Of a stretch of DNA of 15,190 nt, positions 10,593 through 15,190 are shown piece after piece. The DNA lies in the NCBI GenBank assembly GCA_964450845.1, contig CAYVGZ010000038.1, positions 1-15,190 of the forward strand. The letters run 5' to 3'. The notes below the pieces were generated by a model. That model did not search any database. It worked only from the letters and a program-made list of their open reading frames with translations, and had not been told where the DNA came from. The translations under genes were made by a program, and so were the position numbers. Numbering within the stretch: position 1 is the first letter of the stretch; each line of letters starts with the position of its first letter. Source of the DNA: an uncultured Candidatus Bathyarchaeia archaeon. GTDB taxonomy: Archaea > Thermoproteota > Bathyarchaeia > Bathyarchaeales > Bathycorpusculaceae.

Positions 10593-12845
10593 ATGAGGAT
10601 TAGAGAAATCCTATCGAAAGAACATGTTGTCAACGGTCTGAAAAGCTTAGGAAAACTGCGAATTAAAATAAGCCATGGGTCAGTAATCACTTTTTCAGCA
10701 TTGCTACTCATACTTTTCGTAGCTTTCATTATACGCCTATTTCCAATAAAATGGGAAATACAAGCCGGTTCAATACACCTCTCAGAGTTTGATCCTTACT
10801 TTCAATATCGTTTCACAGAATACGTAGTAAACAACGGGTTTATCTCATGGGTTTGGCCATCCCCTGGATGGTATGACACGCAACGCTGGTACCCAAGTGG
10901 AATACACGCAACAACGGGATATCCAGGATTACCGTTTACAACAGCGTTTTTCTATAAAATAGTTTCAGCGTTGGGTGTAAATATTGAACTAATGGATTTC
11001 TGTGCACTTTTTCCACCCATAATGGGTATGCTGGCTTGCTTAGCAATGTATTTTTTGGGCAAGGACATTGGCGGAAAACCAGTTGGACTATTTGCATCCC
11101 TCTTTTTAGCCTTGAGTCCTTCCTACATTCAACGAACGTCCCTTGGGTTTTTTGATGACGAAACAATCGGAATATTTGCCCTTGTGCTGTTTGCATTCTT
11201 GTTTTTAAGAGCGATTGAAGAAAACAAGCCTCTGTCCTCATCTGTGAAATATGCAGTTGGCTCCGGATTGACTTTGGGGTATTTCTGCGCTGGATGGGGT
11301 GCCGCATACTACCCTCTCGGCCTTACTGTTCTTTTTGTTTTTGTGTTAATTTTGCTTAAAAGATACACGCAACAGTTGCTTCTGTCATATAGTTTAACTT
11401 TTGGATTAGGGTTATTTATTGCGATAAATGTTCCCAGACTCACGCCTTCCTATCTAACTACAATCGCCATTTTGCCTGTTGCAGGCGTATTCGTATTGCT
11501 CTGTTTCTGTGAAGTTCTCAAAGTTTTGACATCTGCAAGATCGAAGAGCATTTTTGCGATAGTTCTTCTGGGTGCACTGATTGGCGGCTTTGTTGTGATG
11601 TGGCAGCTTGGCTACATGCGAAGTATAGGATCAAAGTTTATCTCGGTTATTGACCCAATTATGCGGGCAGCCTCTCCACTTACAGAATCTGTCGCGGAAC
11701 ATCGAATAACAGCTTGGGGCTCCATATATTACGAGTTTGGCATAGGAATAATATTCTTTATAGCAGGCTTTTTTTTCATTTTGAGAAATCTTAGTAACAG
11801 AAACCTATTTCTCTTACTTTTTGGTCTAACATCCCTTTACTTCGCCGGTTCCATGGTGCGATTGCTCGTACTTGTAGCTCCAGCCATCAGCCTTCTGGCA
11901 GCTATTGGAATAATAGGAATATTAAAACCCTTTATCACATTGTTGAAGGAGCCACCTAAAATCTTAACGAAAAAAAAGTACAGCTTGGAACATGTTGGAA
12001 AAGAGTTTAGCGGGACCACAATCTTCTTAATTTTCATTATTTTAATGACAAACTTTGCCTTTTCACCTCAATCTGGCGGCATGCCTAGAGTATATAGGCA
12101 AGCCTACGTTCCAGTCACTATTTCCGCGAGTAGTCTTTCGTTAGTACCTAACCAGCCTGTAACAGCGTGGATGGATTCGTTGGAATGGATGAAAAATAAT
12201 CTTTCGCCTACGACCGCTGTTTGTAGCTGGTGGGACTATGGATATTGGCTAACAATCCTTGGCAATGTAACGTCTCTTGCCGACAACGCTACAGTAAATA
12301 GGACTCAGATAGGACTAATAGGAAGAGTGTATGTTTCGAATGAGGCTCAAGCAGTGAGAATACTTAAAGAACAATTTAACGGTCCTCATGGATCCCCTAC
12401 CTACATTTTGGTATTCGTAACATTCTATAGCACAGGCCAAGATGGTAATGCTGGGGGGGATGAAGGGAAGTGGATGTGGATGGCAAGAATCGCTAACTCG
12501 TCTAGAGCAGTTCGAGAATTATACGAGCAAGAATGGGGCGTATGGGAATATAATGAATGGGGAGCTGGCATGCAAAACAACACTTTTGGGAGCTATAATT
12601 CTACATCTGGCTTGTTCGAATGGAATAGTGTGGGAACAAACACGACGATTTACAAATTGATGGAGAACGCAAAAAGCTTTCAAATTTCAGGATACACTGC
12701 TCCTACACTTACATATTTCAAGAATCCGCGATTCTTCGGAGGTGAGGTAGCCTCGTATACAACAACATCAGGAACTACTGTGTATCTGGACGCGTTGGTA
12801 TGCCTATATGAAGTGGACTATGAAAAGTACGACTTAGACCACTAG
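10593..12845 (+). CDS. aglB: Oligosaccharyltransferase catalytic subunit AglB/STT3
   Basis: 750 aa with many TM segments. Motifs: EFDPYF, YPGL, YIQRT..GFFDDE, SVAEH, WWDYG, DNATVN and DEGKWMWMARIA (DK motif). Confidence 0.95.
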   Translation: MRIREILSKEHVVNGLKSLGKLRIKISHGSVITFSALLLILFVAFIIRLFPIKWEIQAGSIHLSEFDPYFQYRFTEYVVNNGFISWVWPSPGWYDTQRWYPSGIHATTGYPGLPFTTAFFYKIVSALGVNIELMDFCALFPPIMGMLACLAMYFLGKDIGGKPVGLFASLFLALSPSYIQRTSLGFFDDETIGIFALVLFAFLFLRAIEENKPLSSSVKYAVGSGLTLGYFCAGWGAAYYPLGLTVLFVFVLILLKRYTQQLLLSYSLTFGLGLFIAINVPRLTPSYLTTIAILPVAGVFVLLCFCEVLKVLTSARSKSIFAIVLLGALIGGFVVMWQLGYMRSIGSKFISVIDPIMRAASPLTESVAEHRITAWGSIYYEFGIGIIFFIAGFFFILRNLSNRNLFLLLFGLTSLYFAGSMVRLLVLVAPAISLLAAIGIIGILKPFITLLKEPPKILTKKKYSLEHVGKEFSGTTIFLIFIILMTNFAFSPQSGGMPRVYRQAYVPVTISASSLSLVPNQPVTAWMDSLEWMKNNLSPTTAVCSWWDYGYWLTILGNVTSLADNATVNRTQIGLIGRVYVSNEAQAVRILKEQFNGPHGSPTYILVFVTFYSTGQDGNAGGDEGKWMWMARIANSSRAVRELYEQEWGVWEYNEWGAGMQNNTFGSYNSTSGLFEWNSVGTNTTIYKLMENAKSFQISGYTAPTLTYFKNPRFFGGEVASYTTTSGTTVYLDALVCLYEVDYEKYDLDH

Positions 12846-12866: not shown

Positions 12867-13739
12867 TTGTTTCCCAAAGTTTCTGACAATCATAAGACGA
12901 ACAAGCCTTTAGTTCCGAACGGGTTAGGCGTAATATTTGTCATAGTGAGCGCAACCTATCTCTTTCTATTATATTATAATTTCCAATTAACAAAGGATTT
13001 TGATAATGCTTCTCGAGCGTTAACTTTGGCTGTTTGTGTCTTATTTGGAGGTTTTATGGGTTTGCTTGATGATTGGATGGATTTGCGGTGGCGTTATAAG
13101 GCTTTCTTTCCGCTAATAGCTGCAATACCACTTATTTCCTTAGCCATAAGTCTCGGATTGCGTACACATATGACGGTTCCAGTTTTTGGCACAATAAATT
13201 TTCATGACTCTTATTATTTCCTAATTATTCCGCTAATTGTAACCGTAACTACTAACACTGTGAATCAGCTTGGAGGTTTGAACGGTTTAGAAACAATATG
13301 TCCCGCAATAGTCATAATTGGACTAATGGCTGTCTCAGGATCGAACGCTGTTCTATTATACGTTCCCTTAATCGTGTGGCTTTTGCTCGCCTTTTTTAAT
13401 TTTCAAGGCAAAATTTTCGTTGGCAACACCGGGTCTTTTGCCATTGGAATGACCTTGGCTTCATTTGCAATTATTTCAGATACAAAAACTGTTCTGCTGA
13501 TTTCCATTTTGCCTTACATTTTTAACTCTTCCCTGATTTTGTTGACTTATTTCTTTTTCAGAAAAAAGGCAGCTGTCTCTTTTGATGGTAAAAAACTGTT
13601 TTCGGACCACAGAAGGAGTCTTATTACCCTTGTTACTCATCATCGTCACTTGACTGAGCGGCAGGTAGTTGTAATAATTTCACTTTTGGTGGCGGTTTCA
13701 ACTTCTGCTGCTTTGTTCGTTCAATGGCTGTTGATATAG
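12867..13739 (+). CDS. Polyprenyl-phosphate HexNAc-1-phosphate transferase (GPT/AglH/DPAGT1; MraY/WecA superfamily)
   Basis: KPLVPNGLG, GLLDD...WRYK, NTVNQLGGLNGLE, KIFVGNTGS and DHRR. SD GAGGT (12855-12859) precedes the TTG, and an in-frame TGA at 12861 fixes the start. Confidence 0.87.
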   Translation: MFPKVSDNHKTNKPLVPNGLGVIFVIVSATYLFLLYYNFQLTKDFDNASRALTLAVCVLFGGFMGLLDDWMDLRWRYKAFFPLIAAIPLISLAISLGLRTHMTVPVFGTINFHDSYYFLIIPLIVTVTTNTVNQLGGLNGLETICPAIVIIGLMAVSGSNAVLLYVPLIVWLLLAFFNFQGKIFVGNTGSFAIGMTLASFAIISDTKTVLLISILPYIFNSSLILLTYFFFRKKAAVSFDGKKLFSDHRRSLITLVTHHRHLTERQVVVIISLLVAVSTSAALFVQWLLI

Positions 13740-13926
13740 CTATTTGTTCTAAATGGTGATATGCTTATTATCATGGTTCAGTAGAAGGCGTAATTGTAGA
13801 AGGCAGTAACAGAAGCAACGTATGCTGTGACGGTTCAACCCGAAACCATAGAAGAAATAGGCGAGTTAGCGTTTCTCGTGAATGGCTTTCAGTAACATTA
13901 ATAGCCTAGGATTATGTGCATAGAAA

Positions 13927-13988
13927 GGGTTGGCGGGTGAGTGGGCCTCCACCCGTTCCGCCACTACAAACCCCGGCGTAGGAGGTGA
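13927..13988 (+). promoter_or_regulatory. Candidate structured 5' leader with an anti-SD sequence upstream of queT
   Basis: A GC-rich island with several perfect helices, plus GCCTCC (13945-13950) complementary to the SD GGAGGT (13981-13986). A TATA-like TTAATA lies at 13898-13903. Confidence 0.5.
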
Positions 13989-13992
13989 AAAA

Positions 13993-14496
13993 TTGAAATT
14001 TGACACTGAAGATTTGGCTTTAGCTGCGGTTTTCGCTGCGCTATATGCTGCGGGAGTTATTTTTCTGGCGCCTATAAGCTTTGGAGTCTATCAGGTTAGG
14101 GTTGCTGATGCTTTACTGCCATTATCAATGATTTTCGGGATGCCTGTTGCTATTGGATCAGGTTTAGGGTGCTTAGTTGCAAATGTCTATGGTGGCTTGG
14201 GCATCGTCGATATTGTTGGCGGAGCAGTTGCAAACTTTGTGGCGTGCACTTTGGCATGGTATGTTGGCAGAGGTGGGATTGTGCGTAGGTTTCTGGGATG
14301 TTTTGTTGAGACAGTAGTTATAACAGCGATTGTTGGTGGTTATTTGTCGCTTATATTTGGCGTCCCAGTTGAGCTTGGATTATTTGGCATCTTTGTTGGT
14401 TCCATCGTAGCAATAAACATTTTAGGCTTTGCGCTTGTAGAGGTTTTGCACCGAAGCGGCGTAGTGAAAAAACATGCTGAAAAGTATCCACCGTAA
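13993..14496 (+). CDS. queT: QueT-family transporter (ECF S-component-like; putative 7-deazaguanine precursor uptake)
   Basis: AAVFAALY, APISFGVYQVRVADAL, GCLVAN and GIVDIVGG fit the QueT pattern (AALY..PISFG..QFR.SEAL..GC..AN..G..D). A strong SD (GGAGGTGA) supports TTG 13993 over the track's start at 13930. Confidence 0.82.
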   Translation: MKFDTEDLALAAVFAALYAAGVIFLAPISFGVYQVRVADALLPLSMIFGMPVAIGSGLGCLVANVYGGLGIVDIVGGAVANFVACTLAWYVGRGGIVRRFLGCFVETVVITAIVGGYLSLIFGVPVELGLFGIFVGSIVAINILGFALVEVLHRSGVVKKHAEKYPP

Positions 14497-14515: not shown

Positions 14516-15190
14516 TTACATGAAGCGTTCCAGCTTCGTCAATCCCAGTATTTCTTCAAAATCTAAGCCCAGCGCATCCAGCACCTGGTCAAATGTCGAT
14601 TGCAAATAGGCAACATACTTGTCAACATCTACTTCATTGTTCATTGTAAGCTCAACAGGTTTGACGTGCGGTTCTTTAGTGACTTTGACGAAACTTATCA
14701 AGTCTCCAGCCCTGACATCTTTCATCATTTTTGCAGCTTTAACGTGCTGAGGCGTCGTTTTCGTGTAATGCCACAGCTCTTCGCCTAAGACTACGTTGAA
14801 CGCTAATTCTTCTAGGCTTTCCCACTCTCGCCTCTTCAAGCGGATGTAGCAGTCGCGAACGATTTCACATATATCCTTCTTTGCCTTCTCAAAGTCTGCT
14901 GGCGTCTTCACCATGGCTAGGCGTTCTTTCATTCTGTCAAAAGCTTTCTTAATGAATATTGGAATATGCCTCTTCTTTCCCGTTAATCCTTTGACGTCTA
15001 CGCTTCCGTCCTCTAAAACGCCCAGATAATTCTTCTTGCGTGAACTAAAAACGGCATATCTGTAAACCTTGTCCACGTCCAAACTCATCTTCAACTCATG
15101 CTCAGTCCACTGCGCCAAGTCTTCTATCTGCTTTTTCAAGGGATTTTTTAAGAAGATGCTGTCTGTGTCGCCGTAGAGGACTTGAATGTT
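14516..15190 (-). CDS. polB: Family B DNA polymerase, C-terminal part (PolB1-like), 5'-truncated by the window edge
   Basis: The frame is open to the window end: NIQVLYGDTDSIFL (catalytic YGDTDS), then KKNYLG...VDVKGLTGKKR and YTKTTPQHVKAA. The KKNY.G...VD.KG...KKR pattern resembles crenarchaeal PolB1. Confidence 0.93.
   Translation of the reverse strand, partial: NIQVLYGDTDSIFLKNPLKKQIEDLAQWTEHELKMSLDVDKVYRYAVFSSRKKNYLGVLEDGSVDVKGLTGKKRHIPIFIKKAFDRMKERLAMVKTPADFEKAKKDICEIVRDCYIRLKRREWESLEELAFNVVLGEELWHYTKTTPQHVKAAKMMKDVRAGDLISFVKVTKEPHVKPVELTMNNEVDVDKYVAYLQSTFDQVLDALGLDFEEILGLTKLERFM

Follow-up and report, generated by a model that had tools for sequence, protein, structure and literature searches.

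A conserved pseudoknotted leader RNA of archaeal queT genes, a candidate translational riboswitch most likely for preQ0

The queT locus

The window, by which we mean the whole stretch of 15,190 nucleotides that was analysed, comes from an uncultured Candidatus Bathyarchaeia archaeon and ends with a queT gene and a family-B DNA polymerase gene convergent to it (Table 1). The first-pass annotation, made from the letters of this DNA, had named the gene queT, and this was confirmed by its match to the Pfam QueT model; translation starts at a TTG placed 7 nt past the Shine-Dalgarno (SD) sequence, a spacing that is also the mode for the family. The two genes directly upstream of the queT leader, encoding AglB/STT3 and a GT4 glycosyltransferase, form an N-glycosylation pair. 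queT is preceded by a spacer of 253 nt that contains the leader element described here. The GC-rich island that had been pointed out upstream of queT is also real, with a GC content of 0.63 at 13920–13979 against 0.42–0.45 in the flanks. The minimum free energy of the 81-nt RNA from the window is −23.9 kcal/mol, and that of shuffled sequences is −23.1 ± 2.9 kcal/mol (z −0.28). The fold of the lone sequence is thus no better than that of shuffled ones, and it is through comparative evidence alone that the leader exceeds chance.

Table 1. Features of the queT locus and of the leader element (positions in the window)
Feature	Position	Strand	Remarks
AglB/STT3 gene	10593–12845	same as queT leader	750 aa
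GT4 glycosyltransferase gene (AglH-like)	12867–13739	same as queT leader	
TATA-like box ATTAATA	13897–13903	+	−35 to −29 from P1
P1 5' strand GGCGG	13932–13936	+	pairs with 13958–13962; optional extra pair T13931:A13963
J1/2 (G6 U7)	13937–13938	+	unpaired; G 162/162, U 162/162 (distinct sequences)
P2 5' strand GAGUGG (G8–G13)	13939–13944	+	pairs with 13949–13954; A9-C22 mismatch
P3 5' strand, anti-SD GCCTCC	13945–13950	+	pairs with 13981–13986
P2 3' strand CCACCC	13949–13954	+	13949–13950 common to P2 and P3
J2/1 (G24 U25 U26)	13955–13957	+	unpaired, nearly invariant; G 161/162, U 157/162, U 162/162
P1 3' strand CCGCC	13958–13962	+	pairs with 13932–13936
A-rich linker L3 (ACUACAAA)	13963–13970	+	final two A (A38, A39) 162/162; length 6–15 nt
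Tail CCCCGG	13971–13976	+	C41–C43 162/162; first C is C, U or A
Shine-Dalgarno GGAGGUG, P3 3' strand	13981–13987	+	covaries with anti-SD
queT, ECF-type S component	13993–14496	+	TTG start; Pfam PF06177 QueT, 89.8 bits, E 2.7e-25
Family-B DNA polymerase gene	14516–15190	−	convergent to queT

Architecture of the leader element

The element comprises about 60 nt and three helices, in which P1 encloses the hairpin P2 and the third helix, P3, forms a pseudoknot. The anti-SD strand of P3 is made up of the P2 loop together with the first two to three bases of the P2 3' strand, and the SD with which it pairs lies about 30 nt downstream, only 3–7 nt beyond the CCCCGG tail. P2 spans G8:C23 to G13:C18 with one mismatch, which shifts among GUGAG, GUAGG and GUGGG variants. 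The P2 loop is 4 nt long in 110 of 160 sequences, and in 128 of the 160 the 5' strand of P3 overlaps the 3' strand of P2 by 2–3 nt. Since the two helices share these nucleotides, full P2 and full P3 cannot coexist and must compete. An upstream coding extension, the open reading frame from 13930, was considered for the same stretch and rejected because the lengths of the P2 loop and of L3 differ by non-multiples of three.

Six helices had been proposed for the window sequence. Three of them stand: TGGCGG/CCGCCA (13931–13936 with 13958–13963) is P1, GTGG/CCAC closing GCCT is part of P2, whose full extent is 13939–13944/13949–13954, and the pairing of GCCTCC (13945–13950) with GGAGGT (13981–13986) is P3; all three are conserved and covary in relatives. 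The other three find no comparative support. A GGGTT/AACCC helix pairs in 46.5% of alignment cells and a CGCC/GGCG helix in 73%, in both cases the shuffle expectation, and the latter has no change on both sides. The CGGGTG/CACCCG helix, which had been put forward as a mutually exclusive alternative, can form in 91.8% of cells, again exactly as expected from shuffling; it shows no double changes and is broken in 10 sequences that carry a compensated swap of a P1 pair from G:C to C:G. It is a possible minor conformer at most.

Covariation and conservation

The covariance alignment A2 contains 99 true matches (101 rows if two antisense junk rows are included). P1 and the extended P2 have standard pairs in 85.7% of its cells, with 72 cells changed on both sides compared with 27 ± 4 in shuffles, and a covariation score of 0.194 compared with 0.104 for shuffled alignments and at most 0.065 with slid partners. 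Tolerance of G-U wobbles is confined to the sense strand, and the reverse strand scores about 12 bits. The first pair of P1 is GC in 69 sequences, AU in 19, UA in 3 and GU in 5, and occurs as C:G in Asgard; the last is GC in 91 and CG in 10 with zero mismatches, GGCGG/CCGCC being replaced by GGCGC/GCGCC in those 10 sequences. The middle three pairs of P1 are invariant. Within P2 the 11:20 pair is UA in 76 sequences, GC in 8 and CG in 3, so that U11:A20 is exchanged for G:C or C:G in 11 sequences, and swaps at 8:23 and 9:22 turn one of the variants GUGAG, GUAGG and GUGGG into another.

P3 was tested without fitting the alignment to it. The helix score of the loop with the downstream region of its own sequence was 17.1, compared with 15.7 ± 0.16 for permuted partners (z about 9), and the corresponding duplex energies were −14.3 and −13.0 ± 0.14; none of 2000 permutations reached the observed value in either case. 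When the CCUCC and GGAGG cores served as anchors and only the bases flanking them were counted, 106 of 134 were paired on one side against 81.7 expected and 63 on the other side against 36.3 expected, values reached by none of 5000 permutations. These permutation statistics overstate the significance, since the sequences share ancestry. The argument from the many independent helix types is unaffected by this kinship: there are 61 distinct P3 helices of 5–9 bp that span the whole SD, among them CCUCCC:GGGAGG, CUUCC:GGAAG, CCCUC:GAGGG and UCACCUCC:GGAGGUGA as against CCACCUCC:GGAGGUGG, and two types, GUCUC:GAGAC and UCCGAC:GUCGGA, are not SD-like.

About twenty nucleotides are invariant across the element. 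Over 162 distinct sequences they include G2 C3 G4 and C28 G29 C30 of P1, G6 U7, C22, U26, the last two A of the linker and C41–C43 of the tail. Covariation is blind at all candidate pocket positions and, within P1, counted as six pairs with the optional U:A added to the five-pair core, at three pairs; none of these ever varies. In the same 162 sequences the CCC tail has no covarying partner and no mutual information to any column. Three partners for it were considered: GGGU at the P1/J junction, rejected as the GGCGC variants keep the tail; G12–G14 of P2, which are 86–94% conserved while CCC never varies; and CCG of J2/1, which offers 3 bp only and is missing from the CCCCAAAA subgroup.

An absence of conservation or covariation among queT leaders had been named beforehand as what would speak against the proposed 7-deazaguanine-sensing RNA. 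What was found is a leader that stays near-invariant while QueT falls to about 32% identity, and in which P1, P2 and P3 all covary. We therefore hold it very probable that the leader is a real, conserved, pseudoknotted cis-regulatory RNA.

Distribution and controlled genes

QueT is present in 54 of 61 relatives. A near-identical leader lies upstream of queT in 27 of the 30 loci that were fetched, with QueT identities of 32–85%, and in two of the remaining three the motif precedes a queT paralogue some 1.2 kb further upstream, and a QueC-like C-terminus lies between. A covariance model, R1, was built for this short archaeal queT-leader motif. It finds exactly one copy in the genome of the window, on the sense strand at 13929–13987 (76.4 bits, E 3e-19, model positions 1–60). 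It also has matches in 92 of the 151 Bathyarchaeia genomes that were sampled, seldom with more than one in a genome. In a phylum-wide sample 29 of 151 genomes are matched, other classes and families of the phylum included: 9 of 15 (f44), 3 of 3 (f56) and 2 of 2 (f60). The Asgard phylum contributes matches in 19 of 121 genomes, some of them on megabase contigs. Three bacterial occurrences were discarded as chance pattern matches, two (L131 and L164) with no model match and one (L201) scoring 30 bits with no que gene. Two other contigs filed under bacterial MAGs (Acidiferrales, Krumholzibacteriaceae), L195 (DASPPK010000097.1) and L196 (DATKLC010000021.1), have the motif in full together with QueT and a TATA of archaeal type. 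The former also shows the archaeal synteny of queT with the polymerase (PolB) and is probably a misbinned archaeal contig.

The genes downstream of the motif were tallied over 177 model matches (167 distinct sequences). QueT follows in 158 of these by phmmer, a QueE-like gene whose top five NCBIfam matches are all QueE models in three, and QueC (212 bits) in one. Three more are followed by membrane proteins with no Pfam or NCBIfam family (L060:1569–2270, L155:5727–6557 and L046), which may be further 7-deazaguanine carriers; the L060 protein resembles clusters of ECF S components in the ESM Atlas (0.94). One match is the chance occurrence L201, and the rest were seen on inspection to be QueT with ACG, ATT or ATA starts or at contig ends. 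One lineage has an operon of queT and queC with the motif at its head and a convergent PolB after it. The arrangement of queT, or queT-queC, with a convergent family-B DNA polymerase after it is kept in the window, in another class of the phylum (L252–L255) and in L195. A sensor of what preQ0 synthesis finally yields would be expected to control such a set of genes. The starts of the genes are mostly weak, with TTG in 67, GTG in 33, ATG in 29 and apparently ACG, ATA, ATT or CTG in 13 of about 150 related loci controlled by the motif.

The region upstream of the element was compared in 160 relatives, where the A/T information peaks at −35 to −28 from the first base of P1 and an A-rich stretch precedes the peak. 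The TATA-like box that had been suggested for the window falls in this place and thus has the backing of the family. From the usual archaeal spacing between TATA box and start, we infer that transcription begins 2–6 nt before P1 and not past the structure, so that the element would stand at the beginning of the queT mRNA. L3, which in relatives often reads AUAUAAA, lies about 26 nt before the start codon, where the TATA box of a leaderless transcript would be placed, and a second, internal promoter at L3 is possible.

Comparison with preQ1 riboswitches

A 2024 review of the preQ1 riboswitch family lists three classes, all of them bacterial, and never mentions archaea (PMC11625349); no report of the archaeal leader element was found in the literature searched. 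As the first-pass annotation had proposed checking, the sequences were compared with the Rfam preQ1-I, II and III models. With Rfam 15 the window gave no match at the gathering score and its region 13740–14100 none at E ≤ 10, and among 20 diverse members of the family neither a preQ1 family nor a credible other family was matched at E ≤ 1. The observation that canonical preQ1 ligand-binding nucleotides are not recognisable also holds, as none of the known pocket signatures occurs in the element.

The preQ1-II class (RF01054; COG4708/queT motif) is found in the 5' leader of queT in Streptococcaceae and Lactobacillales, within Bacillota only, and is an HLout pseudoknot of about twice the size of class I with helices P1–P4, including an orthogonal P4 hairpin before the SD (PMC11625349). 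The archaeal element likewise stands in the queT leader, would act on translation only and with the same OFF logic, and has its anti-SD:SD helix P3 in a pseudoknot stacked by the presumed pocket; as in preQ1-II, the SD is fully paired with an upstream anti-SD, here over 5–9 covarying base pairs. In contrast to preQ1-II, P1 encloses a hairpin whose loop has the anti-SD, the consensus is unrelated, and no conserved P4-type hairpin separates the tail from the SD, the gap being 3–7 nt and the CGCC/GGCG pairing showing no covariation. The likeness to class II that had been drawn is therefore only partial: the anti-SD:SD pseudoknot is shared, and the small hairpin between aptamer and SD is not conserved.

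In preQ1-I riboswitches (RF00522, types 1–3) UC or AC invariably comes before the 3' strand of P1 and supplies in its C the specificity base that pairs with the ligand, no hairpin occurs within the P1 loop, and only the first SD bases are buried in a short P2 (PMC11625349). The element resembles them in its small size, its 5-bp P1, A-rich linker and C-containing 3' tail that directly precedes or lies within the SD, in its ties to queC/D/E and transporter genes, and in that the ligand would sit at a helix junction. It differs in that GUU precedes the 3' strand of P1, with the near-invariance listed for J2/1 in Table 1, and in that P3 covers the whole SD. As for the H-type pseudoknot of preQ1-I, where an A-rich L3 comes after P1 and the tail is paired to the P1 loop, the element has an A-rich L3 with two invariant A; the possible partners of its CCC tail inside the P1 loop are all invariant, and none covaries with it. 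The preQ1-III class (RF02680), known from Ruminococcaceae and gut metagenomes, has about 100 nt and five helices, with a pocket far from the expression platform (PMC11625349). Common to it and the archaeal element are the position upstream of queT and an anti-SD in the loop of a stem-loop onto which the SD of the 3' tail docks (P5 in class III); the archaeal element has about 60 nt and three helices, and its anti-SD hairpin abuts the conserved junction.

A long form of archaeal queT leader (L008:1380–1500, G054; also L261–L265, L269 and L270) has the same P1, GGCGG/CCGCC, with a loop of 8 nt that starts with G and ends with YU and an ACCC(C/A) tail after P1. Unlike the short form it has no P2 inside P1 and is not detected by R1. 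Its tail pairs with a downstream GGGG or UGGG, CCCC:GGGG and CCCA:UGGG covarying. Two further hairpins occur in it, one of them inserted and covarying and the other formed locally and separately by anti-SD and SD, and its AAAUCAACC is invariant.

Ligand and proposed mechanism

Archaeal ArcTGT uses preQ0 in archaeosine synthesis; the QueE/QueC pathway ends at preQ0, and QueF makes preQ1. QueF passes the cut-off in 1 of 151 Bathyarchaeia genomes. The genome of the window, a MAG that is 93.5% complete, encodes ArcTGT (C23:14244–15215, 286 bits); in it we found no PTPS/QueD, no QueE-like match and no credible QueC, the only matches to the QueC model being those of other PP-loop enzymes at 22–29 bits. 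With ArcTGT present and QueC, QueD and QueE not found, the organism seems to live on imported base and may depend on scavenged preQ0. Together with the rarity of QueF and the use of preQ0 by archaeal ArcTGT, this makes preQ0 the most likely ligand.

The element has the hallmark of a riboswitch, namely a conserved structured RNA in the 5' leader of the genes of one pathway, with an expression platform. The proposal of a new 7-deazaguanine-sensing RNA with an anti-SD:SD pseudoknot gains support from the conservation, the covariation, the placement of the motif before QueE-like and QueC genes and the lack of an Rfam match, even though half of the helices originally drawn for it are not conserved. 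We think it likely that the leader is a translational OFF riboswitch of an undescribed archaeal class, most probably for preQ0.

As we picture it from the sequences, the queT mRNA would open with this cis-acting RNA of about 60 nt, whose ligand pocket at the P1/P2 junction would be built by the invariant G6 U7, G24 U25 U26, linker AA and tail CCC. These unpaired bases are taken as a pocket or tertiary core because occlusion of the SD alone needs none of them, and by analogy with preQ1-I the A's of the linker may dock in the minor groove of P1. Binding of the base would fix the tail and keep the immediately following SD against the loop of P2, which would open at its top and let P3 form, and the ribosome could not load; with no ligand, P2 would close over the anti-SD and leave the SD free. 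The OFF logic is suggested by the control of biosynthesis genes. In this organism the switch would throttle preQ0 uptake when the base is plentiful, given that ArcTGT is present and QueC, QueD and QueE were not found. The P3 duplex averages −10.3 kcal/mol and is more stable than the section of P2 that it displaces, so that P3 might form without ligand.

A more far-reaching version, which we put forward only tentatively, would make this the first archaeal 7-deazaguanine riboswitch class, with a new fold and selectivity for preQ0 over preQ1. In it C41–C43 would pair with G24, the ligand and G6 as a three-base mini-helix at the P1/P2 junction and so pull the SD onto the P2 loop, and the class would be common to Thermoproteota (Bathyarchaeia and sister classes) and Asgard archaea. 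For a class shared in this way, the origin would have to be old unless the RNA was transferred along with queT.

Alternative explanations

The same RNA might sequester the SD in response to a ligand other than preQ0, one of the purine-like bases imported by QueT-type carriers, such as preQ1, queuine, archaeosine base, guanine or 7-deazaguanine. This is unlikely in view of the motif's control of QueE-like and QueC genes, which belong to a pathway with preQ0 as its end point, the passing of the QueF cut-off by 1 of 151 class genomes and the established use of preQ0 by archaeal ArcTGT. In its favour, the QueT of bacteria is reported to transport preQ1, and the bacterial aptamers for preQ1 accept preQ0 and guanine as well (PMC11625349). 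Bacterial preQ1 present in the environment could also be salvaged.

Autoregulatory proteins also use conserved leaders that occlude the SD, and the invariant unpaired bases could be protein contacts, so the leader might instead bind a trans-acting RNA-binding protein, or a small RNA, that stabilises the pseudoknot. We consider this improbable. No conserved partner gene adjoins the motif, the neighbours differing between lineages; one copy per genome tied to que genes in two phyla is the usual pattern of a riboswitch; and the sequence of the GU/GUU junction, which has no tandem G-A pairs, carries no k-turn signature, on which ground a k-turn was also rejected as a component of the fold.

The strength of P3, which may form constitutively, and the weak starts of most controlled genes would both fit a ligand-independent attenuator or RNA thermometer that keeps a membrane protein low or tunes it to temperature. 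Such a device, to which we give slightly less credence than to a binding factor, leaves unexplained why the unpaired G6 U7, G24, U26, AA and CCC are conserved throughout 162 sequences from two phyla (G24 in 161), and why the motif is restricted to genes of preQ0 uptake and synthesis. That the leader is instead a DNA element, in which L3 would serve a leaderless queT mRNA as TATA box and the inverted repeats of high GC content would serve as operator, is very improbable: L3 does lie at the right leaderless distance from the start codon and is often TATA-like (ATATAAA), but P1 and P3 covary across it, which places both sides on one RNA, the G-U wobbles are strand-specific, conservation extends to the strong SD 7 nt ahead of the start, which covaries with the anti-SD, position −3 of L3 is G or C in 29% of sequences (the window has ACUACAAA), and a better TATA-like peak lies upstream of P1.

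Significance

Validated archaeal riboswitches are few. If the preQ0 riboswitch reading is correct, the element would be a fourth RNA solution for the recognition of 7-deazaguanines, small, abundant and specific to archaea, and its 60-nt RNA would be well suited to structural work. It would also mean that SD-based translational riboswitching takes place in uncultured archaea, Asgard lineages included, and it would provide a sequence marker for genes of archaeosine-precursor salvage, candidate new transporters among them. For the Bathyarchaeia themselves, the analysis suggests that many depend on scavenged preQ0.
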